A stretch of DNA of 63,432 nucleotides from Rhizophagus irregularis. Lineage: Eukaryota. Position 1 is the first letter of the stretch. Every line of letters begins with the position of its first letter. Positions 2,764 to 61,141 of this stretch are shown one piece after another. A model generated the notes under the pieces. The model was not told the origin of the DNA, did no database searches, and saw nothing but the letters and a program-made list of their open reading frames with translations. The stretch spans positions 5,766,001-5,829,432 of the forward strand of contig NC_089433.1 in the NCBI RefSeq assembly GCF_026210795.1, read 5' to 3'. Made by a program: the position numbers and the translations under genes.

Positions 2764-2940
2764 AGTACAAGTTTTTTTTATCACATTTTATTTATATGGA
2801 TTTATTTTTGTATGATACGTTCAAATTTTTCCTTTCAAATACCTCATCCGTTCACTCCATAAAATTTTAAATACTTGTTATTTTTCAATATGTCTTCATT
2901 AATGAATCTGTCTTTTAAACAAATATGCACAGAAATTACT

Positions 2941-3322
2941 TTTAAAAATGACCTCGCATTGACCCACAATAGAACCTTTAAAAGTGACCTCACGTTGACC
3001 AGCGCGAGGGAACCTTTTTAAAAGTTACCTCGCATTGAAACGTGCGAAGGAACCTTTTCTTTAAAAAGTTACCTCGCATTGAAACGTGCGAGGGAACCTT
3101 TCCTTTAAAAGTTACCTCACATTGAAACGTGTGAGGAAACCTTTTTAAAAGTTACCTCACGTTAACCCGCGCAAGGGAACCTTTTTAAAAGTTACCTCGC
3201 ATTGAAACGCGCGAGGGAACCTTTTCTTTAAAAAGTTACCTCACATTGAAACGCGCGAGGGAACCTTTTTAAAAGTGACCTTACATTGAAACGCGCGAGG
3301 GTACCTTTTTAAAAATGACCTT
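2941..3322. repeat. Minisatellite, 41-44 bp hairpin-forming unit, ~9 copies
   Basis: Unit AAAAGTTACCTCGCATTGAAACGCGCGAGGGAACCTTTT repeated head-to-tail without spacers. Confidence 0.9.
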
Positions 3323-3517
3323 GCCATTATAAATTTTGACATTAAAAATAAAAATTTATTTTAAATTCTTCAGAATCAAAATGGTCCAACTTCTCTTTAA
3401 ACACAAAAAAAATGTAAAATACATGTAAGTTGTAAGTATAAGATTGTAATATAGTACTGATATCGGTATATGATATTTAAGATAAACCATTTTTTTTAGA
3501 AAAAGAAAGTCAATGTT

Positions 3518-4507
3518 TAGAGCTCCGAATGGGTCAGGTCAAGTCAGGTTAATTGATAAACCTGACCTGAAATTTTTTTTCAGGTCAGGTCAGGTCAGGT
3601 TATATCAGGTTGTCTGTTTGACCTGACCTGACCTGAAACCTGATTAAGTATTGAAAAAAAACGGTACAAAACTTTTTTTTTTTTAATATAACATTATGAA
3701 AAAAATGTTTTCGCAACGTTATTATTGAAATATCAAAAAAAAAATGTTACGAAACATTTTTTTAATATAATATTATGAAAAAACGTTTTCGCAACGTTTT
3801 TTCTCGAAATATTGCGATTCAACATTTTTATATTAAAATCATATAAAAAAGTGAATCCCAATACTGCAATTCACTTTTTTTATATAGAATTAATATAAAA
3901 AAAGTGAGTTGCGGTATTGCGATTCACTTTTTTATATTGATTTTGTATAAAAAAAGTGAGTTGCGGTATTGCGATTCACTTTTTTATATTGATTTCATAT
4001 AATAAAAGTGAGTTGCGGTATTGCGATTCACTTTTTTATATTGATTTCATATAATAAAAGTGAGTTGCGGTATTGCAATTCACTTTTTTATATTGATTTC
4101 ATATAATAAAAGTGAGTTGCGGTATTGCGATTCACTTTTTTATATAGATTCTATATAAAAAAAGTGAGTTGCGGTATTGCAATTCACTTTTTTTATATAG
4201 AATTAATATAAAAAAGTGAATCCCAATATCGCAACTCACTTTTATTATACGAAATCAATATAAAAAAGTGAATCGCAATACCGCAACTCACTTTTTTTAT
4301 ATAGAATCTATATAAAAAAGTGAATCGCAATACTGCAACTCACTTTTATTATATAGTAGAATCAATAGTTTCAGGTTAACAGGTCAATCAGGTCAGGTCA
4401 ATCTTCATACCTGACCTGAATTTTTTTTAAAAATCTCATACCTGACCTGAATTTCAGGTCAGGTCAGGTCAGGTTACCTGAATTTGGCTGACCTGTTCGG
4501 AGCTCTA
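3518..4507. mobile_element. hAT-like non-autonomous element (990 bp)
   Basis: 12-bp TIR TAGAGCTCCGAA/TTCGGAGCTCTA; 8-bp TSD TCAATGTT (3510-3517, 4508-4515); subterminal (CAGGT)n repeats; internal ~53-bp repeat AAAAGTGAGTTGCGGTATTGCGATTCACTTTT in both orientations. Confidence 0.92.
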
Positions 4508-39702: not shown

Positions 39703-40142
39703 AAGATTGTTCTCTGATGTCCGTAGGAAATATGATTTTAGAGCTGAAAAAGTTGTTGGTTGGTGTTACATTGGTGAACAAGGTATAGGGTGTCGTTTCT
39801 TTTATTTCTTACCTTCAAAAATATACGGATGGGTAATAATATTACTCATGTTCATTCGCTGTTACGGTAAAGAAAAAATTTAATGGTTGAAGATTAAAGA
39901 TAGATATCATTACGTAATTATGTAATTGTACGGTTTTTAAAAAGTCACGTGACATGTGATTATTGTGATATTTGATTTGTACTACATTATATACTTTTCG
40001 ATAGAAAAAAAACTCTTTCCGACGATCGTTAAATACCAAAAACTCACAGAAGAAATTTCCACCATAAAATACATTTCTTTATAAACAGTGTCATTTTTTT
40101 CTACAAATTTTGGTCTCTACGCTCTTCTCGGAACATTATCAT

Positions 40143-42389
40143 ATGAGTTTTGCTATAAGAAAAAAATTCTCGAACAAATTCCTGAAAAATATAGAAAAAA
40201 CCTATCGTCCTGTTTCCAACGACGAAGATATATATCGTACATACTCGTCACCCAACAAAAAATCCAACATGACTTCCAGTCAACCTATAGGTCCTACTCA
40301 GACTGCTAACAACGCTACAACGGACACAACTATGGAAGAAGCATCATCTTCCTCTCCCGCTCATGCTCTTTCGCACAGCGAAATTGAACTTACATCACGT
40401 GACTTACATGAAAAAGATATTCACACGCAAACACCAATCACTGAAATATTGACTAATATGGATGTAGATCCTATTATTACTAACACAGATAAAGGAAAAT
40501 CGCTGGAAACACAGTCAGCCACACAAACAAATACCCCTAATCCGTTACAAATTACGGTGCTAACAGATATATTTGAACAAACACCACAAGTTTCAAACAA
40601 AGCACACAAAGGATTTATTCCTAGAGATAGTTTCCCACCGAAACTCTCTAACAACGAAATTATCAATCTAATAAAAACGTCATTCATCAAGGATAGCAAT
40701 GCTTTTAGATTTGACGTCAATACAACATCCACCTACAGATATTTTACTATCTATTTCAGAACACGTGACTCGCTTGACTAATACATAGCAAAAAGTCCCG
40801 ATAACCTCAAACATGTAAAAATTTACGAACTCACCAATGAGGCTATCAACACATTAATAGAACAAAAATTCTCTAATCTAGACCAGGCTGTTATAAAAAT
40901 TATGGATATACCATACAACTACGATACATCCATGCTTATCAAGCACCTCGCTATAAAAACAGGCAGCAATATCATAGATCATAAAGAAATTAAAAAACCT
41001 CCAAGAAAGATTTCCAACCGCAGCACTCGCGGTCGCCCTATCTTCATAAAACCTGCTTACAAACAACTTATTGTCCGATTTGACAAACAAGCAGCATATG
41101 ATTATTTCATGAATGAAAACTATTGGAGCCTCGAAATCGAGAACTTCGTAGTAAGAATCTTACCTGGTAACCCCGATGATCCCGAATATAAGAAACGCAC
41201 CAGTCATTACTTCAAAATCACTGGTCTCCCACTCAATTCCACAGCTAAAGACATTGAACCTCTTATTAAACACGTCTACGGACGAACTTGTACATTTACA
41301 CAAACCACCAAATATTCAACCATGAAAAATGCCTATATTTACGTCTCACCAAACAATTATCCGACAGACGCGATCAATGGCGCCTCCTCACTTTTCGAAG
41401 GATACAATCTCCACGTCCTACCAGGACACCTTTCACTAAAGACATGTAATACTTGTGGATCACCACTCCATGAGGCAAAAAACTGCGACGACAAAAATTT
41501 CGACATCGATCAAAACAATCGAAAAATCTTCAAAAAACGATTTATTAATCGTAACGAAGAAAAAATTGCAATTAACGAAAACCACAGAGCTAGATTTAAC
41601 CATGTCATTACTCTGAATGCAAATAAAAGATCTCCCACGATGTCACAAAATCCTAAACCCAACCATACACCACCGCGCAACTACAACAACAAGAATAACC
41701 AACAATCAGGTAGCTTATTATATCCACGACAGACCAAACAACCATATAATAACCATAATAATTATGGCAACAATAACAAGGATTTAAAATATGATAATTC
41801 CTATATCGCCCCTCACCTGGACAATCCCCAAGTGACCGATATCAATCGTTCTGAACAACGAATTACACAATTGGAACAACAAGTCCAATCCCTCTTACAG
41901 AGTGTTAAAACACTCCAAGATGGAAAATCTAAAGTCGATAGTACTATCGCCGATATCCATCACAACCACAATTTAATGAGCTCTTCGCTCAATGACATCT
42001 CCACCAGACTTGACAAATACGACACAATTATCCAACAACTCACGACTAATATTAATTTACTTAGTCAAGAAAAGATTTCAGAACATAAAGAACGTAACGT
42101 CAAAACACCAAAATGACCGTCTCCATACGAACAATCCTCGTATAGAGTAACAAAAAATAGATACAACCTAAGAGGCAATAAACATGGTAATACCACAGCG
42201 GATGACAGCGAACAACCCTTGGCAACCGATGAAGACACCGATGCCCCCGACGAGGCCGTCATGTCAGACGGTGCCGTCTTTGAAGGAATCATTGATGAAT
42301 TGTCAAATACAACACTGACTGAAACTAAATTTTCAGTCAAATCCTACAATCCCCTTAACCTCCTCCCGCAGTTTAATGCGACACGTTAA
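40143..42389 (+). pseudogene. LINE ORF1 (gag-like; CCHC knuckle, coiled coil)
   Basis: One frame with two premature stops (TAA 40779, TGA 42114); CNTCGSPLHEAKNC = CX2CX4HX4C. Confidence 0.9.
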
Positions 42390-42519
42390 TTACGTGCTTA
42401 CCATTAAAACTTATATATCTCCTCTTTATTTTGGATATACTTTTTGGACTTCCCCATTTTGATTCTAACGGTTTAACATTTCTATACACATATTGATTCT
42501 CTTTATATACAATTTTATT

Positions 42520-45500
42520 ATGGAATACACCAATTTACAACCCCCGGCTGACCTCGAAAATCAGCCTTTTGCACCAGTTTTACAATATTCTCATACTAAA
42601 CATAACAAAAACACAAAATCACAAAAAAATTATAAAAAACCCCAAAACCACAAAAATATTAATCAAAACTTTCATACCCCAGACAATAATGATGCACCAA
42701 CAACAAGTTCACGATATTATATTTGTGAACCTCGTAATGATGAAGATGAAAATATGCTAAATTACATTGAACACCATTTATTTGATGACCAGGATACAAT
42801 AGCGTCAACGTCGTCTACCTCTCAAATACACGACACCCCCATATCAACATCTTCTCAATTACGAACACAATTTATTGATTACCATAAATTTGGTACAATT
42901 AATATTCAAGGAGGATTCAATAATAAATTGAATGATATCCTCCATTTTTTCACGCTTCATAATTATGACATACTTATTTTGACCGAAACAGGTCTCCACC
43001 AATATACTAATATAGATATGGACCTTAAGAAAGCAACACATTCAACGCATTCACTTCCAGTACTGAATAATGATAACATTATTCATAATATTCATTTTTA
43101 TATAGATGACAAAGGAAATACCAAAGGTAGTGGAGTTTCTATGATGATCACGGATCAACTGCAAAAACATATTATCAAAATCAACACCTTTCATAGCCGT
43201 ATTTTAACGGTCGATTTATGCTTTAAAGGCAATCATTATATCAAATTTATATGTTGTTATTTACCAGCTAATGCTGTTGACGACAAAGAATTGATTATTA
43301 AATGTTACAAAGAAATTGAAAACATTTTAATCACGGCTAAACACAATTATTTTGAATGTATAGTTTTAGGTGATTTAAATATTAGTTTCGACAAACTAAA
43401 AAAATCTAATCATTACCCTATTTGGAGACGTGAAATCAATACAATCTTTAAAAACTTTGGTCTTAGAGACTTACTTAAATCATTTCACGATCACCCGAGC
43501 CCGACGCATACTACTAAAAGGAAAGAAGGATCAGATATACAATCTCGTATAGATTACATCTTCACCTCACCTAATATCCTTCACTATAGCTTTTATGCTT
43601 ATACTCATAGTGTCTCTGAAGATTTTTTTACCACAGATCATCAGGCTCTTAGTTGCTATTTGACGCAAGATTATTTCAAAAACAAGTCTAACAGCTCTAG
43701 GAAAAGCTTAGAAAATTCACTCACATATAAACCTAATACAAACCCCAAAATTCAATTTAAATATCACTTAATGACCACAGAATCCTGGTCTGATTACAAA
43801 GTTACCAACGGTATTATTTATCGACAACATATTAATGATAAACCAACCCTACCGGATATAACACCAGAACAACAGATCGAATTATATTGGTCTAATATTA
43901 AAGATATTATCAAACAGACAAAAGATCGATGTATCCCTTCTTCCACATATAAAAAATACACGAAACATGATCGTCCATTATCTTTACAACAAAATAACAA
44001 CAAAATACTGATACTTCGTATGATTTTACGAAGATTTTTTAATATTAAAATTAATCGATTACAAGATGATCTTGACAAATGGAAAGATTATTGGAATACC
44101 TGGGATAAATCACGCAAATAAATTCTGGTTATCGACGTTCACTTTAACGCCAAACGTACTATTTGGCTACCATATACTTTGACGCCCAATAATATATCTG
44201 ACGTTAAAAAAGATTTACAAAGCCTTTTGCGTATATCTATTGTCCTACACAAACAAAAAGAAGATTCATGGACTATTAACAAAATTAATAGATATATTAA
44301 TGATAGGAATAATAATTTAATTCATAATCAAAAAAGGATGATTAATAGTATCCTTGACCGTAAACCCCAAAAAATAACATTAGATCGTTTACATTATTAC
44401 GATCATCAAACTAATCAATTTCAATTTACTAACAATCCTCATATTATAGCAGAACAAACTAATTTACATTTTCAATGTTTAGGAAAAGACCTTAACGAAC
44501 TTAATAATGTTAAAAAGTATAAGTCAATTCAAGACCTCCCGTTATATTGGAGATCAACCTATGAACCTATTAACAACCGTGATTGTAAACACATGACGTC
44601 ATTAGCGGATGAATTTTCAATTGACGAATTATCCCAAGTCATCTCATCACTTCCAAACAATAAAGCCGCAGGCATTTCCGGCATTACATACGAAGACATC
44701 AAACATACACACCAAGACTTTAGAGAATACATTAACAAATTTTTCAATTATATTATGCAGGTCCAAATTTATCCACGGGACTGGTTACATGCATTCCTTT
44801 TCCCTATACCTAAACCAAAGGCTTGGGATTGCAAAATAGAAAATACTCGACCTATAGTCTTGTTAGAAACGTTTAGAAAATTGTTTGTCAAAATTTTGAT
44901 ACAAAGGATTAACATCACGCTTACGACATACAACCTGATTAATGAAAACAATCGGGCTGGCCTAACGGGACAATCCACGTTACAACCATTACAAGTCGTC
45001 CAACATATAATTGAATCTGCTTATAAAGATAAAAAACAATTATGGATTGGTCTACAAGACCTCAGCAAGGCTTACGATAGAGTTAATTTATCTCTGTTAC
45101 GATTAGCATTAGAACGCCTACACTTTCCGACTACAATTACCACTCTTTTAATTTCTTTATTTAGTGATCGGAAAAATAATGTTATTTTACCTTTTGGTTT
45201 ATCTGCCGATTTTGATGTACTTCAAGGCATAGACCAAGGAGAAGTCATCAGCCCAATTGTATGGATTATTTATTATGATCCTATGTTCACATATTTGTCA
45301 CAATTAACCGAAAATTTACATGTCACCTCCGTTAACAAGATCAACAATATTTACCAACCTGACTCCGACCTACAGATTAATTATTCAGCATCTGTGGTGG
45401 GTTATCTTGATGATACCAGCTGGTTTGCTTCTTCCAAATCACAATTGGAATCCAACCTCCAAATAGCAAATTCTTTTTATGACATGGCGAACATCACTAT

Positions 45501-48500
45501 CAATCATGACAAATATATCATCCTTACCAACAACCCTAAACTTTGTAATAAGGAGTTACAATTCCAGGTCACCCCTGACAAATCAATAATGATTAAAACA
45601 GCGTCACGGGCCTCATCTAACCGCATTCTTGGAATCTACATTAACGCATTTAATTCACATACGCCAACGCTAAAGAAGATTAAAAAAATAGTTAATCATT
45701 TTGCGTATACAATGCGTTTTAAAAAAATAACTCACGACCACCTTATTTATATTATTAACAAAGTATTATTACCCAAACTGGAGTATATCAATCAATTTAC
45801 TATTTTCACACGTTCGCAATGTGATTCTTTATTAGCTCCAGTTAAAAAACTTTTTAAACAACATTTAAAATTACCAATTTCTACCCATAATAATATTATT
45901 CATAACAAATTATTTCCCTCCATTAATAGTTTTTTTTATAACCAATTTTATTCACATATATCAATTGTTAACGTTATTTTCAACACTCCCATGTTTTCCA
46001 CTATTGGTTTACAAAAGATTTTGAATACACAATATGATTTTTGGATACCGAATTTTCCAACGTCCAAAGACCTATCTAATCCTATTTCTTCAAATTATCA
46101 ATCCCTTTTAACCCGACAATTACGTCTCTTTAACAAGTTTTATATAACTTTTTTACCACACTGTAACACGTCTATCACAGGTGGTAGTAACTCTATAATA
46201 TCGTATTTTAATTCACATGATTCTCTCGATACTTTATCCAGTAACGACCTTCAAAGTTTACGGAAAAAACGTATAATGTTTATGGATCAATTAACTTCCC
46301 TCGACGGTTCTTTTCTAAGTACCTGGAAAGACGTCAAAAAACAAAACCCTAAGGCAAATTTTAAAGGACCTACGCCCAAGTGGTTTCAAAACCTTGAACA
46401 ATTTAATATTCTGGTGGATGACAGTTCACGACGCCTATTACGAAATTTGATAGTTTCGCCTCCGGCCAGATTTGACTCTATGTCTCCCCCTTTACGAAAA
46501 GCTCATAAATACCGCCCTAAGAATGAATGGACCATTTCTTGGGACATGGTACACCAGTGTGAATTATATGGCTAAGGTTGCTTGTCTAAACCTCTTCAAA
46601 ATCCTACGATTAGTTTCGTCAAAATTTTACTATAGATTTATTATAGTTTCGGCAGAGTTTCGGCAGTTTCGGCATTTATAATAAGTTTCGGCAGTTTCGC
46701 CTTTCTCCAAAGTTTCGCCAGTTTTTTAATATAACTTTAATATAGTTTTGGCAGAATTTCGCTTTTCAGCAAAACGCCATCTTGCCTAAACCCCTAGGTT
46801 TCGGCAAGCAACCTTATATATGGCAAGACGATTGAACAACAAAATGATTTATATGGTACTAGCCTTACTTACCGAACACATTATCTTCCTGTGGTTAATG
46901 CAGATATTAGAACCAATTTAACACCCAAAAGAATAACCCCTATTTTACATCCTTGTACAGGACTATGTGGTCATAGTGTACCTTTTAGTGGTGATCTACG
47001 TCCAAAATGTGTTATTGTTTCTTTAACATCACATTTGATTCTTTTTAAAGTTCATGCAAAAACTTTTATACCTAATAAACCTTTTATAAAATTAGAGAAA
47101 TTTTTTATTTTTCCAGTTACACCTTTACATACCCTTCGTACTCAAGCGTTTACATATAGTAAATATAGATTAATTACACCCAATGTTTTACCTCCAACGA
47201 TTCCTGTTTTATCTTCTTTGGACTCATATTTAAATGAGAATTCTTTATTATTTACTAATAATTTGATCAATTTAAATTTAAATATCTCTTCTTCCCTTTT
47301 TATTAAAAATATTTTCGTAGGAAATAGAGATTTAATTATTCAACTTTTAGAAATAGCTAAACAATTTTTGTCACGGAAAAAATTTATTTTTTATACTGAT
47401 GGTTCCTTTGCTTCTATAGATGTTAATTCTTCTACTCAAACTCAAATGGGTTTTGCCTGGATAGAGATTACTGATATAACTCCTGATTCCAGTTCTCCTC
47501 CACCAATATACAAAGGCGCTTTATCTTTTAATCCGTCTTCTACCAAAGCAGAAGTTTATGCGCTTTTAACAGCCATTATTGCTGTACCTGATGCGAGCGA
47601 ATTGGATGTCTTCACAGACTCGCTGAACGTTATTCATACTTTCCATACAGTTACTAATAAATTAACCTCCACAAGAAGAACGTTGAAATGCAATAATCAC
47701 CTAGCGTGGCGCCTAATAGACACGTTAATTACGAAGAAATCATTAATCGTCCGTTTACACAAAGTCAAAGCTCACTCCAATAATTTTTGGAATGATATGG
47801 CTGATAATTTAGCTAATGCTACACGACAACTGGCACCCTATGAAATCAATCCCACAACTTTACCGGGTTCTTTATTGACCCCTATTTGGGCTTCTATAGC
47901 GCCGATTGACCGTGATATCAGAAAATTTTGTCACAATTTAACAGATGTTTACACTTTTAATCAATTTTTGGGTAATTCTTCACTCTCACCCATTTTTGAT
48001 AGATTCCCCTTATCCTCAATACATTGGCCTCTAACTAGAGCGTGGTTGCAATTTAATTCCACACCGGATGTATGTAGCTCCACCAAATCCTCACACCACG
48101 CCTATCGAATTAAAGCACTTAATCATATACTTCCTTGTGGTGATGTTCTTACCAAACATTACCCTGATTTCTACCCCAATAATTATATACCCTGCCCGGT
48201 GTGCAATGACCATCAAGATACTAATGAACATTTGGGAATTTGTTCAAATCTTTTACCTGTAATTAATCACATTTTAGTGGAACACAAGAATATACTACAA
48301 CGTCTCCTTGAGGAGCATACTTCGTACAATCCTGCCCTCATCACACAATCCATCGATCAGTTGGATCTTTTATCACCGATCTCGGAGTCGAACTCTTACA
48401 CCCATCCAATATATTTAATTATACACCAACTTATTTCACAAGATTTTTATAACCTTGTGCGGTCTTTTACCTTTAATGATAAACTTACCCGTTCCATCAT

Positions 48501-49002
48501 ATGGGAATTCTTAATCTTATTTCACGACCAAATCTATCAACAAATATGGCCTAAACATTGTTCTTTGCTGAAATTGTGGGAACAACGTAATGGAATCACA
48601 CCCAAACGCAAACGTGATTTTCGTAAGAAAAAACCTAGGAACTCACGTGATCACCAAACAGCACAGCTTATTACTCAACCTAGAATTGTCTCTACTTCTT
48701 TTCACGGATCACAAAATCTCTCTCCGCCTAGAGCTAGGACGAACTTTTCACCTTCAGATGGTATTTCTCGCCGTTCATCCCACCCTTGGACTTCTTCGGC
48801 CCCGTCTACTCGTCCTTCTCACTTACCGCAACTACCGATGTGGTTGATTTTGTGCACATGTAATTTTTTACATTCCGGTGGATGGTTATCTTCTGTCCGG
48901 CATCCTAGTAGTTTTGAGTTAAATATAGATAATTTTTCTTCTTCATGTAATTTTAATTTTAATTTTTTTAGTTCTTCCTTTTCTTTTGATCGTACTTTCT
49001 GA
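42520..49002 (+). pseudogene. LINE ORF2: AP endonuclease, reverse transcriptase, RNase H, C-terminal Zn finger
   Basis: APE: TINIQG, LTET, GDLN, SRIDY, TDH; RT: PIPKP, RPIVLLE, DLSKAYD, QGEVISP, YLDD; RNH: YTDGS, AE, TDS, VKAH, NDMAD; CPVC...HLGIC; one stop (44119) and one MITE insertion. Confidence 0.95.
46573..46816 (+). mobile_element. 244-bp hAT-like MITE, copy 4, inside LINE ORF2
   Basis: Same TIR; 8-bp TSD TATATGGC; removal gives in-frame ...ELYG-KTIEQQNDLYG...LPVVNAD. Confidence 0.97.
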
Positions 49003-50183: not shown

Positions 50184-52856
50184 CTAGCTGTTTATATTTT
50201 TCTTTATGGATTGGGATAAATTGTGCGATAATTTTGAAATTTTTCTCTTTTTCCTAGATGGCATCATATTAGGATCATTCTCTTTAGAATGTTTACGCCT
50301 TTGGATTGAAGCTACTTGTACTGGAATTTTGCGATTTTTCACATTAAATCTTGAATCCAAATTTTGATAATTTTGGTGTAAATATGATACTAGTTGTCCA
50401 TTAGATGTATTCTTAGCTTTTTCATACCCCTTTTGAAAACTTTCCATGCCTAATAATAATTGATCGTTATTTGTAACATCTTGATAAACAGAATCAAGAA
50501 ATTCTTTAATTAACTTGACACGATATTCTCTATTTTGGTGATTAAGTTCTAATTCCGAAGATCTAAAATAAAATATCATAAACACTATAATATCAGACAA
50601 TTTATTTAAAAATTTAAGCATTATTATATATACCTTGCAAAGATTTCCGATGAGTTCGTATCTAACAATCTCAGTGCATTATTTTCCAATAAATTTGCAT
50701 GATTATTTTCTGATGGGCTTGCATTGTTATTGTTATTTTCCAATGGGCTTTCTGGACTTTCTGATGGATTTGTATTATTATTTTCCCATATATTATTTAT
50801 GTTACTATCATTTCCTAATATGTTTGTGGCGTTATTTTCTAAAAAATCCTTAGTTTTTATTTCAGCATGAAATTTTACATAAAAGGATTTGTCCATTACA
50901 CAAATGCCTTGTGCGATATAAGTATAACACATCAAAAATAATGAAGGTATATAGTTGATTGATGATTAATGGCCACAGCTGCTTGATGTTTATAAGGCCC
51001 TCCTGCATTACCTTTCGGACATGTGCATATACCAATATTTGAATCAACTATATAAAATATATCTGACTTTGACGTACTTTGAACATAATACATATGTTCA
51101 ATATTAGCAGAAACAATTTTATTTTGGTCAACAGATTCCCACCTTGGACAAAAAAACCTTTTTGAAATACTGTTTAATTGCTTATTTGCAATAGCTAAAA
51201 GCTTCCTTTCATAAAATCTTTCCATATTACCAATAATAAAAAAATAAATTTGAATAGGATTATAAGCTTTAACTCTACTAAAAATAATATCTTTTATAAT
51301 TCCAAAGCTCCTTTCTACATAATTATTTGTATGATTTCCTCTTGTTGAAGCACCATTACGAAATGATACTGCCCAAAATTCTCTTCTTTCCCAAAGGAGT
51401 GAACAATGCCTTGCCAATTTAGAATACTTATTATACCATTGTAACTGGAATTTCTGGTATTCAACATTCATAATATTTTCTGAATTGGCATATAAAATTC
51501 TTTTAAAATCTGAAATAACTGTTGAACGATCATCTTTTTTAATTTGGTTATTAGCATTCCATAGTCAACGCCATAATGCTTGTAGCACATGAAATATACA
51601 AAGAAACCTTTTTGAATTTGGCCAGCAAAGTTCAATAGCATTACGTTCAGCTGCAGAATCATCAGTCATAAACATAGAAGGATCTAGATCTACTCCTCGA
51701 CCAAAAAATGCATTTGAAGGTAAAATACTTTTTAATTTATTAATGGCAAATTCAATTGTAACTTCTGATTCATCAGAAGTTAAAAAAAGATCAAAAGGAA
51801 GCGCACCAGCAACACAACTGGTATATAATAACGTAATTGAAGTATTTAAAGGATCAAAGCTAGATGATGCATCAAAATAACAGATCTCTCCTGCCTGTCT
51901 AATTTTTTCATGCACTCTTTTCATTAAATTAGTTACAATAGCAAGAATAAATGGTTGCCCAAGTTCTTTATTATATTCACATAGTATTGCATTTCCTAAT
52001 CCTGAATTATAACTTCTTCTTTTAATTTTTCAAACATTCTTGATCCATTACTTGCACCTAAATTAATTTCTCTATATTTTTTAAAGAGATTGTAAACAAA
52101 ATTATAGTCTGAATTTGTTGCTCGGTCAGCCAACAAAGTAATTAATTCCTTTTCATTAGCAGCTGCTAAATGTAAATTATCTTCATAAGTATAAATTGCA
52201 GTTGCTGGTGAGTAACCATTTTTAAATAATTCAATATATTTATCTCAGGTAATTTTGCTAACTGGGCGGAAGCTAAGTGATTCAGCTGAATATGGAATAT
52301 GATTATATATATATTTAATGTGTACATGCATTATTAAATTTTTTTTTTCAATGCGCATTAACATTTTGGATTGACAATTAATATTACGTGTACGAAGGCT
52401 ATTTTCTTGTTTACTAGTTCTTGAACCCTGTTTTGTTTTTACAGTTTTACTATGTATACAATGCCTTTCTTCTTTAAAAACAATTTTTTTTCCTGTTATA
52501 GTTTGCTCTCTAGTTATACATATTGTAGTCTTTGATTTTTCTTAAAATTTTTCAAACCATATCAATGCATCATCTTTTGTTTGAATATTTATTAATAAGT
52601 CAAAGATAAATTGCTTTAACTCTATATCTTTATCAGTAAATAATGATGGAAGTATGTCCATTTTTTCAAGCTGATATTTATAATCACAAGGCAAAATTTC
52701 TTTTAAGTCAGGTGGCAATTCGGACTCTAATAAGCAAAATGTAACGTTAGACTTGAAAAAAAACTTAAAAATTTAACAAGAAAATAATAAATAAACACTT
52801 AATAAACATAAAAATAAAACTATACCTTCTATACTTTGTAATGTCTTAGAGCTCAT
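50184..52856 (-). pseudogene. MULE transposase with SWIM finger, degraded
   Basis: CYFDAS...FMTDDSAAERNA...LCIFHVLQA...TNNYVER; SWIM CTC-x7-[Y]KH (Cys lost); exon 1 52856-52826, intron 52825-52727; stops and frameshifts. Confidence 0.9.
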
Positions 52857-54399
52857 TGCTAAAATTAAAAAGTATAAAGTGTAAGTATAATACTTCAATA
52901 TTATACTTCAAAAAAAAATTTTCGCGTTTCGTATATCGAAAAGTATATAATGTAATACAGATCAAATATCACAATAATCACATATCATGTGACTTTTAAA
53001 AAACTGCACCCACAAAACGGGAGTGCAATTGTACAACTGCTTCTATCATGTAATCTTAGATATTTGCATCAGGAACTTATAAAATTTTCGAAAGCAATTT
53101 ATCAAAAGAAATCAAAATTTTTTGCCCAAATCAAAATTTTTTGCAACAAGTCACATATTAAAATAAATCACATGATAATATTATTATTGGTTCTAGATAG
53201 ATATTATCATGTGATTACATTCAGTAAGCTGGAAACCTGAAGTTCAAAATTCGAAACTCTTCATAATTCCAGCCAGAGACACCTGGTGACTTGAGCTTAA
53301 TTCTGGCCAAAATCAAAATAAATCGAAATTTTTAGTCAACTGAAAGAAATTTTAATTCAAATTGAAATAATATTTACTGGGCTAAAATAAATGCTATAGC
53401 AATAGTATATATAAAACATGCACACACATTTAAAAAATTTGAAGTAAAATCTTTATTATATTTTTGTAAAGTAGTACATGAGAAAGGGTCGGCCAGTTAA
53501 GTAAAAAATGAAACTAATAAGAGATATTGGAGTAGCAGATTGTTTCAAGGAAAGAATTTTGCTAAGCCCCAACCCATATAATGGCAGTTCCTTCCCTGCT
53601 ACTCAGTAACGATGTAAAATCAAGTTGGATAATTGATTTATATAGATATAAGGATATAAAAATTATTAATTATTTTGGTACATTGTGATCAAATTTTGAT
53701 TTCATCGGGAAATTTTTTAAGATGCAGAACTGCGGAGATCTGTAAAATTAGCAGATCTCCGCATTTTTTTTGTGAATTTATGTGGAAGTCTGTGATTTTG
53801 CAGATTTCTGCTTTTTATTTTTTACAAAGTTATGCAATAATCTGCAATTTTGCAAGTTTCCGATTTTTATGTATGAATTTCTGCGGTAATCTGCGATTTT
53901 GCAGATTTCTGCTTTTTTTTATGTGAAATTTATGCGGAAGTCTGCAATTTTGCAGATTTTTGCTTTTTTTTCATTAAAATATCAGTTCGATCTGCAATTT
54001 CATCATTGATTTAATATTTAAACTTTAATTAACTCTAACTTGATTTAATACCTAAATGATTTTTTCTACAATACTCTTTAAAAAGAAAAACTTTACAAGA
54101 CTTTAAAAAAATAATTTTTTCTACAACACTTATTACTAAAGAAAAAAACTTTGTGAAATAATTTTTCTACAACACCTTTTAGGAAATAATCTGTTAAAGA
54201 TTCCAAAGAAAAAATATTTCTATTATTTTTTAAGCTTCGAAACTTATCAGAGAAATTTTTTTTTTAAAAAAAAAAATTTATTTGTAAGGTTCGGAGTCTT
54301 TAAGGCAAATTTGTCTAACATTCGGCACATAATCTATGCAACATGCAGGGAAATTAGAACTAAAAAGAAGTCGTATTCCTTTTTTTTCTTTGAAAAAAA

Positions 54400-57300
54400 A
54401 AATTTTTTTTAATGAACGTCAGTTAACGTTCAGTTTGTAAGTCAAGAACATAATAGAGTCTATTGTCAATTTAATTTGGAGGTATATCACCTCTGAAACT
54501 TTAATTATTTTTAGAGAAAAAAAAATTTTTTTATATTATATAGGTTCCAGATGGAATCTATCGATGATTTTATTTGGAATTCGGAGGTATGCTTACCTCC
54601 GAAATTTAATTTATTTTTTTTAAAAAAAAATTTTTTTTTTATATTATATAGGTTCCGGATAGAACCTATCAAAGATATTGGAATTCGGAGATATGCTTAC
54701 CTCCGAATCTTAATTTATTTTTTTTAAAAAAAAATAATTTTTTTTATATTATATAGGTTCTGGATGGAACCTATTAAAGATATTGGAATTCGGAGGTATG
54801 CTAACCTCTGAATCTTAATTAATTTTTTTTTAAAAAAAATAATTTTTTTTATATTATATAGGTTCCGGATGGAACCTATCAAAGATATTGGAATTCAGAG
54901 GTATACTTACCTCCGAATCTTAATTTATTTAAAAAAAAAATAATAATTTTTTATTTATATTATATAGGTTCTGGATGGAACCTATCGATGATTTTGAAAT
55001 TCGGAGGTATATTAACTTCCAAATCTTTAATTTATTTTTTAAAAAAAAAATAATTTTTATTATATTATATAGGTTCCGGATGGAACCTATTGATGATTTT
55101 TGGAATTCAGAGGTATGCTTACCTCCGAATCTTAATTTATTTTAAAAAAATAATTTTTTATTTAACGAACGCCACTAACGTTCATTTTTCATATTTTTAA
55201 GTCCTGGAAGCCAAAGTACGGCTCAGGACATTTTTTTTTAATTAAGTTATCTAATGAACGTTGCTAACGTTCGATTATAGGTCCTGGACGCCGAAGAACA
55301 GTTCTGGACATTTATTTTGAAGGTAAAACCTTTACTTTCAAAATTTTTTTTTATATTTTTGTTTAACGAACGTCGCTAACGTTCATTTTTTATTTTTTTT
55401 TAGGTCCTGGATGCCAAAGTACGGCTCCGGACATTTATTTCGAAGGTAAAATTTACCTCCGAATTTTTTTTTATTTTATTTATACCTACGAACATTAATT
55501 TACGTTCGTTTTACATTTTATAGGTTCTGGACGCCAAAGTACGGCTCCAGACGTTAATTTCGAAGGTAAAACCTTTACCTTTGATTTTTTTTTTATTATT
55601 ATTTAACGAACGTTAATTAATGTTCGTTTTTATATTTTATAGGTCCTGGACGCCAAAACCAGCTCCGGACTTTACTTTGAAGGTAAAACCTTCGAAAAAA
55701 AAAATTTTTTTTTTTGTTAACTTTATTGACGAACGTTAACTAAGTTTCATCTTATTTTTTTAGATAAAGGAAGCTGAAACTGAGTTCCGGGCTCCTATAT
55801 CGAAGGTAAAATAAACCTTTAAATTTTTTTTTCTTTTTATTTAAACGAACGTTCACTAATGTTCGTTATTCTTTTTTTTTAGGTAAAGGAAGCCGAAAGA
55901 ACTTCCATATCGAAGGTAAAATCTTCGATTTTTTTTTTATTATTTTATTTAATGAACGTTACTAATTCTAATATTCATTTTTTTATTTTTCGTAGGTACA
56001 ACCGTACAAGAAACTGAAAGGCAGGTTCCGGTCTCCTATTTTGAAGGTAAGGCTTCGAAATTTCATTTTACTTTTTTTCTTTTATTTTAGCGAAATGTTT
56101 ACTAACGTTTCGTTTTTCTTTTTTGTAGGACTACAGCACTCTGGACGCTTCGTGGGCTCCATTTCGAAGGTATATTATCCTTTATATTTTTCGAAAGTGT
56201 TTATTTTTATTAGTTTTTTTTACAAACGTTAACTAACATTCGTTTTCATTTTTGTAGGTCCAAGACGCCGAAAGTACGTGTCTCAGATTCAATTTCGAAG
56301 GTAAATAACTTCAAAAAAAAAGGAGTCTCTTTTTTTTTTAACGAACGTTCACTAACGTTCGTTTTTCTTTTTCTTTGTAGGTCCAGGACGCCGAAGGACT
56401 TTAATTTCGAAGGTAAACTTCGATTTTATTTTTATTTTTTATTTAATTTTTTTTTGTTTATTTTAATGAAGCATTATTAACGTTTCAATTTTCTTTTTTT
56501 AGGTTTCTGGCTCTCCTGAATTCTCCTGGACGGAATTTCAAGGTATTTCTTCAAAATTCTTTTATTTTTTTTATTTTATTGTTGTAAAAGAACGTTTCTA
56601 ACGTTCTTTATTCTTTTTTTTTTAGATTTTTGGCTCTCTGGTTTCAGCCTGGACGGAATTTTCAACATGGTTAGTTTCGTAACGAACTTTTCATTACGAA
56701 ACTATTTTTTTTTTTATTTTATTTAAACGAAACGTTACTAATGTTTTGATTTCTTTTTCTTTTGTAAGTTTTCCGGTAGCCACCTGGATTGGACGGGATT
56801 TCAAAGATGAAACTTCGAAATTATTGTATTTTCATTTTTTATTTGAACGAAATGTAGACTAACATTTCGATATTATTTTTTCGTAGGTTGACGGCTTCAT
56901 AATACCCTTTCTTGAAAGAATTTCGAAGGTATACTTCGAAATTCTTTTACTTTTTTTATTATTTTTGATGAAACGTTACTAATGTTTCGTTTTTTCTTTT
57001 TTTTGTAGGTTGACGGCTTCCTGTGAACCTTTCCGATTACAACATTCAAAAAGAATCCACTCTTCCATCTTTCTCCGTCTTCGTGGCGATATGCAAATTT
57101 TTGTTAAAAAACTATTACTTTGGAAGTTGAGTCTTCTGGAATGAATTTTGAAGGTAAACTTTGAAATTCTTTTACTTTTTTTGTTTTTTTTTATTTGAAC
57201 GAAATGTTTACTAACGTTTCAATTTTCCCTTTTTACGGCTTTCCAGATGCCTCCTGGATGAAATTTCGAAGGTAAAACTTTGAAAAAATAATTTTTTTTT

Positions 57301-57831
57301 GTTTTATTTTAACGAACGTTCATTAACGTTTGTTTTTATTTTTGTAGATCCAGGATGCTGCCGGACTTCCATATTGAAGGTAAAACCTTCGAAAATTATT
57401 TTTTATTAATTAATTTATTGACGAACGTTAACTAACGTTCGTATATCTTTTTTTTTAGGTAAAGGAAGCCGAAAGACAAGTTCCAGACTCCCATATCGAA
57501 GGTAAAACCTTTCAAAATTATTTTTTATTAATTTATTTGACGAACATTAGTAACGTTCATATTTCTTTTATTTTAGGTCCTGGGTTCCCATTTAAAGAAC
57601 TTCAAAGGTAAATACTTTGAAGTTTCTTTTTTTTTTACTTCTTTAATGATCGTTATACTAATGATCGTTTTTTCTTCTATGTTTAAGTCCCAGACTGCTG
57701 GGTTAGATATTTCGAAGCTGCTTGCTTCGAAATTTTTTTTCGTTTGTAGGTATCCGTTGTTTGTTGGAATCGAACTAACTGGAACAATGTCCAAACCATT
57801 AACAACATGTAAATGTGCAGTAAAGAGATGA
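54400..57831 (+). repeat. Tandem array of ~28 intron-like repeats separated by mostly 30-50 nt variable micro-exons
   Basis: Unit ~105-125 nt: YAG|exon ending TTCG(A/G)AG|GTA...T-tract...AACGTTNNCTAACGTTCG...T-tract YAG (branch hairpin evident from ~55145 on). Confidence 0.85.
57029..57138 (+). pseudogene. Captured polyubiquitin fragment spanning a monomer junction
   Basis: Translates with small indels as LSDYNIQKESTL-HL-LRLRG(D)/MQIFVK--TITLEVESS. Confidence 0.92.
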
Positions 57832-60301
57832 TGAATAGCAATGACTAGTAATAGATTTCAATTGTATTTGTAAACTTGTTAATATATAATAAAAAAGTAA
57901 TTTTGATTATATAAATAAATTAGTAATTAATGCAATAAATTAATTTGTATTATTGTGACGCAGATTTTTACTGAAAAAAATTGCTGAGGTATTTCGAAGG
58001 TTTTTATTTAAAAATCTGCGCAGAACTTTGTTATTTATAAAATCTGCGCAGTTTTTTATTGGATTTTTCCTCTAATGTTTTGCGCCAGGGTATAAGATCT
58101 GCGCAGATATAATTTCTGAAAATCTGCGCAGATCTGCTCCCCAAAAAATTTCCCGATGTTAAGAATAAAATCAAATTGCTACTTCTTACCATTTTAGACA
58201 CTAACAATTGTGATTTTATTTAAAATAATCTATAATCTTTAATAAATAAATTCCAATATTTACAGTGATTTATGGAAAAAGATTTCAATATTATAACAAT
58301 ATAATTGTCGTGATTAAAGTCACTGGTTAAATGATGAGATATCGGGTTGTGACATATCAGATAAAATCGGAAAAATATCATAAACTGATATGCCACTAGC
58401 AGATCATTTTAAAAATTGAACATAGATTAGTAACCGATAGGCAAGTGATATTTATATGATTATAAATAATTTTTTTAAACTCATATCAACAAGTTATCTG
58501 GTTCTTATTGGATATCTGATAAATTATTGATTTTTATATGATAATAATATAATATTTATATAATATTTATATTATTGTACAAATAATTTTTTAAGATAAT
58601 CGTATTTGAAGTGTTAAAATTTTAGAGTTTTGCCATAGTTTCAGCATTCCAATCTTTTTACTGTATAATAATTTTTTTAATTTCAAACGGTTACCAATAA
58701 ATCTATATGTAATTAAAATTTATTGTAAAATTATTTATTGTAATATTTTTATTTTATTGTATGTAATAAACTGATTTTTTATTGATAAAGAACTTAATTA
58801 ATGATATATGTTGAAGTTCACGTCCTAAAGTAAAAAAAAGAAATATTAATACATTCATTTCTTTGAAGCAATTAAGTAAAACTCCCACTCATACTATCTT
58901 CAAGTCTGGGTTCGATTAAGAATATCTGGTAGAAGAAAAAAAATTAGAGTAAATGTTAGTAATATATAATATATTAATAAAAAAGAACCTCCTCTTCCCT
59001 CTAACTTACATACTTAAAATTCAAATTCGGGTTCATCCAAGAAGTCTAAGGAATATAAATATATTTTTTATTCCTATGCACACACACACCCACCCATCCC
59101 ATTCACCTGTCTGGTTCACGTCCCTACAAAAGACAAGAAATCTAAGAAGCTCAGCATCCTAAAAAATTAGAAAAAAAAACATTAGTATTGTTTCTTTAAT
59201 GAATTAAGCTTTATTTTTACATGTACTGTACATATAACACTCACTTTTTACTTGTATAGTTTATTCAAGTCCGATGTTTGACATCTTACAAAAGAAGAAA
59301 TCCAAAAAGTTGTCCTACAAAAAAAAAAAGTACGGATAAATAATTTTTTTAAAAAAAAATTATCAATGATCAGTAAATTAATTAGGAACTGATCGGAAAT
59401 ATGTATATCATATGATTATGGAGTAATAGAGTCGTATGCATACTCCTTTCCTCTTCTTTTTTTTTTTTAGGTTCAGACCAGTAAGTTAAATATATATATA
59501 TATATATATTAATAAATAGAACCTTTTCTTTATTCTTTTTTTATAGCTTCTGGTCCTCTTTTAAACGCCATTCAGACTGGTAAGTTTAAAAATTTTTTTT
59601 TAAATAGAAGGTGTATAGGCATATACTAACCTTTTACTTTTTTCTTTTTGTAGGTTCTGGACCTTTTTTATACGCTGTAAGTTTTAAAAAAAAATTTTTT
59701 TTTAAATAGAAAGTGTACAGTCAATTCCTTCTATAGTCACTCCCATTATAAACACATTCTACTATATAGTCATACCAGTTAAATGTTCAAAACACTTTAT
59801 TATTAAAATCTATCCTATATAGTCACAATCTATCTATAGTAACTATCACACCTATCCTCAAAAATCTTATATTAAAAAGAACCGTTTATAATCACAGTTA
59901 TATAAAGAATATATTAAATAACTTGACATCTAATAATCGTATAAAAATATATCATAGCTTGTTAGAATTGTCTTACTGAGACGAATTGAATAGTGGTAGT
60001 TTTATCATTTTACTTTGCTAGTGTTAATAGCCAGACCTCCCATTGCCTCTTATGAGACTAATCTCGGGTCTGTGTCCTATCATCTCCATGGGTAACCATT
60101 AAACTGAGTACTTAATTCCTCAGGTAACAGCACCACTTGAAGACATCTCCCATCGGGTCATTTTAGGCTGATCTGAAGCTAGGTACACGCCGCCTACTTA
60201 TCTTATATCCATTGCATGATACTGGTACTCAATTTATTTTACGACCTTTAGAGAGCACCTACTTTCATGGAGGACTTTCAACAGGTAATATCAACCATTT
60301 A

Positions 60302-61141
60302 CATCAGGAAATTTTATAGTGCGAAAAATTGCGTAAGTTTACGATTTTGTAAGTTTACGAAAGTTTATGGCATAATATTTCGAAAAATTTCAAAATATTA
60401 CGTAAGTTTACAATTTCGTAAGATTTATGTGATATTACGGTTAAAATATTACACAAGTTTTCAATATCGTAAGATTTACGCAATATTACGGTTAAAATAT
60501 TTTGAAAATTTACGAAACTGTAAACCTGCGTAATATTACGATTAAAATATTTCAAAAATTTACGAAACTGTAAACCTGCGTAATATTATGATTAAAATAT
60601 TTCAAAAATTTACGAAACTGTAAATCTGTGTAATATTACAGTTAAAATATTGCAAAAATTTACGAAACTGTAAACCTGCGTAATATTACAGTTAAAATAT
60701 TTTGAAAATTTACGAAACTGTAAACCTGCGTAATATTACGGTTAAAAATATTTTGAAAATTTACAAAATTGTAAACCTGCGTAATATTATGGTTAAAATA
60801 TTTCAAAAATTTACGAAACTGTAAACCTGCGTAATATTATGATTAAAATATTTCAAAAATTTACGAAACTGTAAATCTGTGTAATATTACAGTTAAAATA
60901 TTGCAAAAATTTACGAAACTGTAAACCTGCGTAATATTACAGTTAAAATATTTTGAAAATTTACGAAACTGTAAACCTGCGTAATATTACGGTTAAAAAT
61001 ATTTTGAAAATTTACAAAATTGTAAACCTGCGTAATATTATGGTTAAAATATTTCGAAAATTTACGAAACTGTAAACCTGCGTAATATTACGGTTAAAAT
61101 ATTTTGAAAATTTACGAGATTGTAAACCTGCGTAATATTAC
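60302..61141 (+). repeat. 50-bp tandem repeat (~16 units) following a CATC-type TIR
   Basis: Unit GTAATATTACGGTTAAAATATTTCAAAAATTTACGAAACTGTAAACCTGC; preceded by CATCAGGAAATTTT, similar to the TIR at 53703. Confidence 0.9.

Follow-up and report, generated by a model that had tools for sequence, protein, structure and literature searches.

The window analysed here comprises 63,432 nucleotides (nt) of the genome of the arbuscular mycorrhizal fungus Rhizophagus irregularis (contig NC_089433.1, forward strand, positions 5,766,001 to 5,829,432), and all coordinates in the following are positions within this window unless they are given as L001, a related contig that is introduced below. At 53703-58158 there is an element bounded by terminal inverted repeats (TIRs), the arms of which are 37 nt long each and 84% complementary, and the interior of which consists of a tandem array of very short exons and short introns. 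The perfect 16-nt core of the TIR has exact matches at both ends of the element and nowhere else in the window, and one additional site with two mismatches is found at 60302 (0.29 expected). Inside the TIRs there are subterminal repeats, on the left four TCTGCAATTTTGCAGA-like palindromes at 53788-53957 that are detected by TRF as a 49-nt period with 4.8 copies, and on the right four ATCTGCGCAGA palindromes; both kinds differ from the palindromes of the internal array. There is no open reading frame (ORF) of at least 120 amino acids inside the element, which therefore contains no transposase. A preceding reading of the DNA, the sequence-only reading, had described a TIR-bounded array of intron-micro-exon units with neither a transposase nor a single long ORF, and this description turned out to be right in all material points (the 16-nt core, the subterminal repeats, 27-28 units, the inconsistent frames of the spliced products), as did the exon lengths that it gave (39, 42, 33 and 51 nt for many exons, and 40, 41, 43 and 32 nt for others).

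The array begins with six to seven early units of 105 nt that are 85% identical (TRF finds this period in 6.5 copies at 54473-55154, with 85% matches) and continues with about 20 units of about 120 nt (periods of 120-123 nt). In total 27 units can be counted, or 28 if the donor-less relic inside 55113-55280 is included. The early donors are of the GTATGC type, one of them being mutated to AT at 54691. The later-type introns are 75-99 nt long and consist of a GTAAAA-type donor, a donor hairpin, a branch hairpin around CTAAC, a T tract and a terminal TAG, and they alternate with GC-richer exons of 25-51 nt, with one exception of 145 nt. In order, the exon lengths are 43, four times 39, and 40, followed by 42, 42, 42, 40, 42, 33, 51, 41, 43, 32, 40 and so on. 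The exons are mutually homologous, diverged copies of each other, and all exon borders in the array are of the form AG/GT, so that each repeat provides both a donor and an acceptor.

Most of these units have retained the signals of an intron. The donor GT is present in 24 of the 27 units (lost at 54691, 56807 and 57718) and the acceptor AG in 26 of 27, with one deleted before 57235. CTAAC or CTAAT occurs in 15 of 27 units, in all 15 of which the sequence from there to the acceptor is free of AG. In the 14 later-type carriers the distance from CTAAY to the acceptor is 13-27 nt (20-27 nt except for one at -13), and a stray CTAAY of an early-type unit at 54796 lies at -57 from the acceptor. In L001, GT is found in 15 of 16, AG in 16 of 16 and CTAAY in 11 of 16 introns, and all 11 carriers have it at a distance of 20-27 nt from the acceptor, again followed by an AG-free stretch. 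A search pattern for the donor region has 15 of its 17 matches in the window inside the array (0.85 expected), and for the branch region the pattern has all of its 15 matches there (0 expected). An ordinary intron 3' end of an unannotated gene to the right of the element (59172-59198, - strand) consists of TACTAAT, a T tract and TAG, and as this is the layout of the array introns as well, the array units carry intron signals of the host type.

Features of the element at 53703-58158, in window coordinates
Feature	Position	Strand	Basis
Left TIR (core 53703-53718)	53703-53739	+	Inverted-repeat search; homology to L001 starts exactly here
Left subterminal repeats, 49-nt period, four TCTGCAATTTTGCAGA-like palindromes	53731-53971		TRF, motif search, contig depth in DNA run X2
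TATA-like box TATTTAAA, predicted promoter of the internal transcription unit	54015-54022	+	Same motif in L001
Leader / first exon region	54053-54481	+	X18 contigs 54080-54247 and 54289-54560
Early-type units: six introns of 62-67 nt; exons of 43, 39, 39, 39, 39 and 40 nt	54482-55112	+	TRF, exon/intron prediction, X18 joints
Long predicted intron enclosing the donor-less relic of one unit	55113-55280	+	Sequence inspection
Later-type units (20)	55281-57749	+	Predicted exon/intron structure, sequence only
Exon with frameshifted polyubiquitin fragment across the junction of two ubiquitin units	57009-57153	+	Translated matches; orthologous in L001
Terminal exon (57750-57812 95% identical to L001) and first AATAAA at 57888	57750-57893	+	Comparison with L001; inferred poly(A) use
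Right subterminal repeats, four ATCTGCGCAGA palindromes	58013-58134		Motif search
Right TIR	58122-58158	-	Inverted-repeat search, comparison with L001

A second member of the family was found in a soil metagenome. The contig L001 (4214 nt) was the sole match of the branch-hairpin pattern in a scan of metagenome contigs, and it contains a complete element, as the homology to the window begins exactly at the first base of the TIR and covers both termini. The left flanks of the two copies are unrelated, which means that they reside at different genomic places with the same ends, and the family is thus mobile, or at least dispersed. In their 3' halves the copies are collinear (window 56798-57812 and L001 2603-3593, with 83-88% identity), and the 5' halves differ, six near-identical units with 39-nt exons being absent from L001. 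The exons of L001 are 32, 41, 41, 42, 22, 25, 22, 26, 48, 41, 114, 41, 32, 43 and 32 nt long, and between those of 22-26 nt there are three canonical introns that start with GTGAGT or GTGAAT, two of them with TACTAAC. As judged from the two sequences, the cargo is partly stable and partly remodelled through the duplication of units. The region L001 600-1700 consists of about 25 tandem branch-type palindromes (CGRAACGTT-loop-AACGTTYCG) with T-rich spacers and without exon-like parts. These palindromes have a higher-order period of about 190 nt with an alternation of A:T and G:C at one stem position, and they would fall within a first intron of 1.1 kb.

There are also hints as to the number of copies. 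In the DNA run X2 many contigs match the subterminal repeats, with a summed contig depth of 2800-3830 over 53731-53971, which hints at many copies and is not itself a copy number. A 20-mer of the TIR had four matches in genome contigs, all of them single chance matches in bacterial metagenome-assembled genomes without any other feature of the element, and none in viral contigs, which also had no match to the hairpin patterns.

The internal unit appears to be transcribed and spliced. The comparison with contigs of sequencing runs covered 53503-55128, and outside it lie the later-type units, including the exons 55281-55322 and 55404-55445 that the sequence-only reading had named, and the 3' end. 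None of the runs is registered as RNA. Three small assemblies, X18, X19 and X20, look RNA-like and contain about 12% of the element's words; that they derive from RNA is a guess, but over 53778-53942 (three bins) they have a depth of 0 where the DNA run X2 has 3660-3831, which argues against genomic DNA. In X18, one contig has a joint from 55004 to 55071 that skips 66 nt, and with the cut set two letters to the right it reads GT..AG and removes 55007-55072, which is exactly a predicted intron. Another X18 contig has a joint from 54898 to 55071 that skips 172 nt; with the same two-letter shift it also reads GT..AG and removes 54901-55072, that is, an intron, a 39-nt exon and a further intron. 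Such a length corresponds to exon skipping and is not a multiple of the 105-nt period of the DNA. Neither joint is listed for the DNA run X2 among the 15 of 25 contig joints that are listed, and the other 13 listed joints, the ends of which are not GT..AG and which have sides of 20-25 nt in A/T runs, were treated as noise. The first X18 contig starts at 54080, shortly behind the TATA-like box. Other X18 contigs read from the exon into the intron with the AT donor (54678-54743), as is expected if the GT is needed, and in X20 contigs of 68 and 54 nt match exon-sized pieces only (54860-54902 and 55071-55114). Transcription of the + strand and splicing at the predicted sites are thus supported for the early units. 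The TATA-like box is 313 nt from the left end in the window copy and 326 nt in L001, and both copies have an AATAAA behind the conserved last exon, in the window some 270 nt away from the right end of the element. It is plausible from these motifs that the element contains a self-contained RNA polymerase II unit.

Spliced in silico, the transcripts of the two copies do not give a convincing protein. Without a stop, the spliced sequence can be read for at most 121-141 codons in the window copy and 106 codons in L001, in changing frames, and in neither copy do the spliced translations have a consistent reading frame, a start context or a signal peptide. The exon lengths that are common to both copies are mostly not multiples of three, and the loss of a frame hence predates the split of the copies, between which there is also a 1-nt indel inside an orthologous exon. 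Exons are no better conserved than introns (84.1% versus 88.0% identity between the window copy and L001). The product of the array is thus probably non-coding.

One of the 27 exons holds an identifiable insert, which is a piece of host ubiquitin. The translations of 57001-57141 and 57014-57127 were compared with the chains of the PDB, and only ubiquitin or polyubiquitin chains are among the matches listed (all 19 matches for one translation, the best 60 of 215 for the other). The homology is distributed over two frames, in one of which it runs from one ubiquitin unit into the next. L001 carries this fragment in the corresponding exon as well, with another deletion, which shows that it was captured before the copies split, and the insert is a signature of filler DNA or of gene capture as in other non-autonomous TIR elements. 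In Pfam nothing was found with the ubiquitin-bearing frames, and the L001 frame found nothing among the PDB chains. A donor motif of the G/GTAAAAC type that derives from the ubiquitin sequence is destroyed in both copies, in the window by a 13-nt deletion (57090-57110) and in L001 by a 1-nt deletion (2860-2875). The loss of such a cryptic donor within the exon may be due to selection or to chance.

Every unit of the array is at the same time a chain of short, CpG-centred palindromes. In the donor hairpin, positions of about +6 to +17 of the intron form a stem with the 8-14 nt at the end of the exon and GUAAA is in the loop, with a second register in which GU is within the stem; in the branch hairpin, a stem of 8-11 bp surrounds CTAAC; and many exons have a third, weaker stem. 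The folding z-scores of ten units are between -1.9 and -6.9. Perfect stems of at least 8 bp occur 4.25 times per kb in the array and 10.95 times per kb in L001; elsewhere in the window there are 0.36 per kb, and shuffled sequences have 0.185 per array. Of the hairpin cells, 223 are of the Watson-Crick type and 8 are not in L001, compared to 389 and 54 in the window. The ratio of observed to expected CpG reaches 2.62 in L001 and 1.91 in the array of the window, versus 0.57 in a MULE transposase fragment nearby and mostly about 1.0-1.1 in the rest of the window (0.58-1.49 in 3-kb bins). By inspection, the arms of the donor hairpin vary together (GGAGGTA/TACCTCC versus GAAGGT/ACCTTC and CAAAG/CTTTG, and GAAGC/GCTTC where the GT is gone), its covariation having been judged from such arm variants as the two registers are mixed in the alignment. 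The pairing is kept also where the splice motif is lost, as is the case with the GT replaced at 57718 and at L001 3499 and with CTAAC at 55488 and 55606, and the mismatches show no strand bias (34 G.U versus 24 A.C). In consequence, the stems could be maintained as RNA structure, as DNA structure or by palindrome-templated mutation.

Taken together, the element is best explained as a non-autonomous DNA transposon with TIRs that resembles the Pack-type, with an interior that is a tandemly duplicated array of micro-exons and short introns, transcribed from the + strand, spliced at the two joined junctions, likely non-coding in its product and without a role in transposition. This explanation is given a probability of roughly 55%. 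A transposase that is supplied in trans by an autonomous relative would bind the ends and move the element. The internal unit could be either the remnant of a gene of the parent element in which the coding part was replaced, or a captured piece of a host gene, and slipped or template-switching repair may have led to both the growth of the array and the ubiquitin filler. The spliceosome would read the array simply as each unit keeps complete intron signals, and an inserted copy would then decay, chiefly by CpG transitions. In R. irregularis, CG methylation of transposable elements has been described in the parts of PMC8647823 that were available, and together with the near-perfect stems of L001, the eroded stems in the window and the lower CpG content of the window copy this methylation fits a CpG decay after insertion. 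Several expectations of the sequence-only reading agree with this explanation: mobility is backed by a second complete copy with the same termini in other flanking DNA, growth by duplication by the six near-identical 39-nt-exon units that L001 lacks, and splicing at the predicted + strand junctions by the two GT..AG joints of X18 in the early units. The comparison of exon content and order between copies that it had proposed gave the collinear 3' and remodelled 5' halves.

A number of observations weigh against this explanation. No target-site duplication is recognisable in the window copy or in L001, with flanks of 2-9 nt compared by eye, and if there once was one it may have eroded. No autonomous partner with the same ends was found, the whole genome not having been searched for it. 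The splicing evidence consists of two junctions with one contig each in a single run, it is a guess and the depth argument that make X18 an RNA assembly, and the first predicted intron is still present in an X18 contig (54289-54560). Splicing is seen for early-type units only, the later units with the branch hairpins being outside the contig comparison. Other observations are signs of constraint. Cells of the branch hairpin are paired in 89.3%, compared to 75.6 +/- 1.9 in shuffles, none of 500 of which reached that value, and to 25-48% in slid controls. At five of its eight pairs there are 32 cells with double changes, many of them inherited, and at least four compensatory events among them are independent. 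Stem positions are less diverged between the copies than positions elsewhere (8.9% versus 14.8%, Fisher p 0.016), which is a weak difference as the stems were defined on L001, and CpG is found at about twice its expected frequency in a genome where transposable elements are methylated. Compensatory stems, conserved stem positions and the CpG excess possibly point to a function beyond "junk". With only two copies of the family at hand, a protein-coding master copy may exist elsewhere.

Two other explanations assign a function to the array. The palindromes might function at the level of DNA, with their CpG-centred cores (TTCGAA, AACGTT, TCCGGA) serving as binding sites for the transposase of the family or for a methylation or chromatin factor of the host, and in this case splicing would be incidental. 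This is unlikely, but not without support: the roughly 25 exon-free palindromes of L001, the hairpins that outlive a lost GT or CTAAC, mismatches that do not favour RNA over DNA, the density of perfect hairpins relative to the rest of the window, the high CpG ratios and further hairpin arrays in other repeats of the window, such as at 3520-4200, would all be compatible with it. From a mere array of DNA sites one would not predict palindromes that coincide exactly with the 5' splice and branch sites and keep a constant spacing to the acceptor, the subterminal repeats of the element itself have another palindrome, and the palindrome-binding protein is only putative.

Similarly unlikely is that the spliced long non-coding RNA or the excised introns have a function, with hairpins that regulate or insulate the splicing of near-identical introns, or with dense splicing that shields the transcript from RNA silencing. 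The compensatory changes that preserve both hairpins, the folding z-scores of the ten units, the somewhat better conservation of the stems, the TATA-like box and terminal exon that are conserved in both copies, and the occurrence of exon skipping are all in line with such a function, whereas G.U is not in excess over A.C on the transcribed strand and the hairpins of the window decay at about the general rate. Furthermore, in neither copy does any Rfam family attain its gathering score. A host gene for snoRNAs or microRNAs was rejected, since the best Rfam scores were 29-32 bits and the gathering scores are 100-130. Stems of 8-14 bp are short for substrates of Dicer, and the idea of the sequence-only reading that the array may be a precursor of small RNAs is not supported.

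Somewhat more doubtful is a mobile "intron farm", that is, a family of transposons in arbuscular mycorrhizal fungi by which self-contained introns with hairpin-framed 5' splice and branch sites would be carried, multiplied and moved, either as a reservoir that seeds introns of host genes or as a means to evade, by dense splicing, the unusually large RNA-silencing machinery of the fungus. As to dispersed copies of the unit, the branch-hairpin pattern matched only the array within the window and only L001 among the metagenome contigs, and the best matches of a covariance model outside the array were AT-rich look-alikes, the host genome not having been searched.

It is improbable that the array is a protein-coding micro-exon gene for repeat peptides, possibly varied by exon skipping, which would have decayed in the two known copies while remaining intact in master copies. 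The exon lengths of the youngest units are divisible by three (39 four times and 42 three times), these units are open in one or two frames, and exon skipping has been seen. Against this stand the mostly non-triplet lengths of orthologous exons that predate the split of the copies, the lack of a consistent frame, start context or signal peptide, and the frameshifted ubiquitin pseudofragment within an exon of both copies. The 1-nt indel between the copies also speaks against the combinatorial peptide repeat that the sequence-only reading had considered. The SP7-like effectors of Glomeromycotina, R. irregularis included, are characterised by a Y[KR]Rx[AP]x[AP] repeat, the first copy of which is preceded by a single conserved intron, as far as described in the accessible part of PMC11333574, and thus differ in structure. 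An SP7-like repeat effector was rejected, as the motif is absent from the translations and there are about 27 introns instead of the one conserved intron. A micro-exon gene of the schistosome type was also dismissed, the exons mostly not being symmetric and a consistent frame being absent. An ordinary, decaying and unspliced minisatellite that looks like introns by chance, which the sequence-only reading had named as its null, is very improbable: GT, AG and CTAAC are indeed not clearly more conserved than the neighbouring hairpin arms in an alignment of 30 introns, and units that lost one of these motifs persist, but there are two exact GT..AG joints at predicted sites, a skipped length of 172 nt that no deletion of units gives, a nearly constant distance between branch site and acceptor with an AG-free zone in every CTAAY unit of both copies, and canonical GTGAGT...TACTAAC...TAG introns in the array of L001.

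The surroundings of the element are rich in other repeats. A MULE transposase fragment (50932-52029, - strand; Pfam MULE, E 1.4e-08) is located 1.7 kb to the left of the element, and according to a search of the window with the TIR core it does not have the TIR of the element. Tandem hairpin arrays at 3520-4200 are composed of GACCTGA-type repeats, AAAACGTT...AACGTTTT palindromes and a AAAGTGAGTTGCGGTATTGCGATTCACTTT hairpin repeat with a period of about 60 nt, and it seems that repeats of this genome are commonly built from tandem palindromes. At 39969-49002 (+ strand) there is a nearly intact long interspersed nuclear element (LINE) with ORF1 and ORF2 (endonuclease, reverse transcriptase, RNase H), and its ORF is 84-96% identical to R. 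irregularis proteins. It has ten in-frame stops, all of them TAA or TAG, while both frames end with TGA, which mimics a ciliate code. Such a code (table 6, frames of 715 and 2179 codons) was rejected, as the closest relatives are R. irregularis proteins and all 8 Rhizophagus relatives have a Q where the LINE has the TAA at 44119, so that a C>T nonsense change in the standard code is the explanation. The LINE is thus a young, slightly decayed copy.

If the transposon explanation is true, the element is a fungal counterpart of non-autonomous transposons that carry gene fragments, the cargo being about 27 complete and working-looking introns with their micro-exons, in a spliced array that apparently encodes nothing. 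Tandem duplication within a mobile element would then multiply introns, with splice signals that are held in hairpins and kept by compensatory change. This bears on the birth and spread of introns in fungi and on the handling of transposon transcripts in a genome whose transposons are known to be associated with CG methylation and small RNAs. For annotation it is a warning, as such arrays yield spliced RNA-seq support and thereby gene models without genes.

Several known systems can be compared. The layout was likened to CRISPR by the sequence-only reading, and the likeness lies only in the look, with conserved repeats that alternate with more variable segments; here the "spacers" are diverged copies of one another, only the one with host ubiquitin among 27 has recognisable foreign sequence, acquisition machinery is absent, and the processing seen in this eukaryotic host is spliceosomal. 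In schistosomes, micro-exon genes have long tandem runs of very short symmetric exons, undergo exon skipping and encode secreted proteins. The array shares the tandem, very short exons and the skipping with them, while its frames are broken and it is the cargo of a transposon. Introns have reportedly arisen from tandem or otherwise duplicated segments that contain AGGT, as is said of work by Zhuo et al. in PNAS in 2007. The AG/GT exon borders of the array, with a donor and an acceptor in each repeat, are akin to this. A working intron that was created by segmental duplication is described in the part of PMC3265369 that was accessible. The known cases concern host genes and one or a few introns, whereas here about 27 units belong to a transcription unit that is mobile and apparently non-coding, with conserved hairpins around their splice signals.

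Introner-like elements of fungi are near-identical, multi-copy spliceosomal introns with stable predicted structures (PMC3609843, in part). Like them, the units of the array are spliced, as seen from the early-type joints, and fold stably, but introners are scattered singly among many unrelated genes, and the copies here are in tandem with exons inside one transposon; in the window and the metagenome contigs no dispersal into unrelated genes was found. The foldback element Tetris is a DNA transposon with TIRs and an internal tandem array that expands and contracts, and in what could be seen of PMC4079207 its arrays are not made of exon/intron units and are not reported to be spliced. In the literature on Rhizophagus no description of such an element was found, and the main text of PMC8647823, supplements aside and as far as available, has 0 occurrences of "non-autonomous", "MITE", "intron" and "hairpin".

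Among the closest are the Pack-TYPE transposons of plants (Pack-MULE, Pack-CACTA), which are non-autonomous TIR elements that carry captured exons and introns of host genes and can be transcribed, according to the accessible portions of PMC8903248 and PMC6379663. The element shares with them the TIRs, the absence of a transposase and a captured fragment of polyubiquitin. It differs in having a fungal host, in that no target-site duplication or autonomous relative has been identified, and in a cargo that is mostly an internally amplified repeat of micro-exons and introns and not a mosaic of recognisable genes. That no system of this kind has been described, as the sequence-only reading had put it, was too strong, since similar elements, array-born introns and structured introners are all on record; the combination of these features in one element is new as far as literature searches go.

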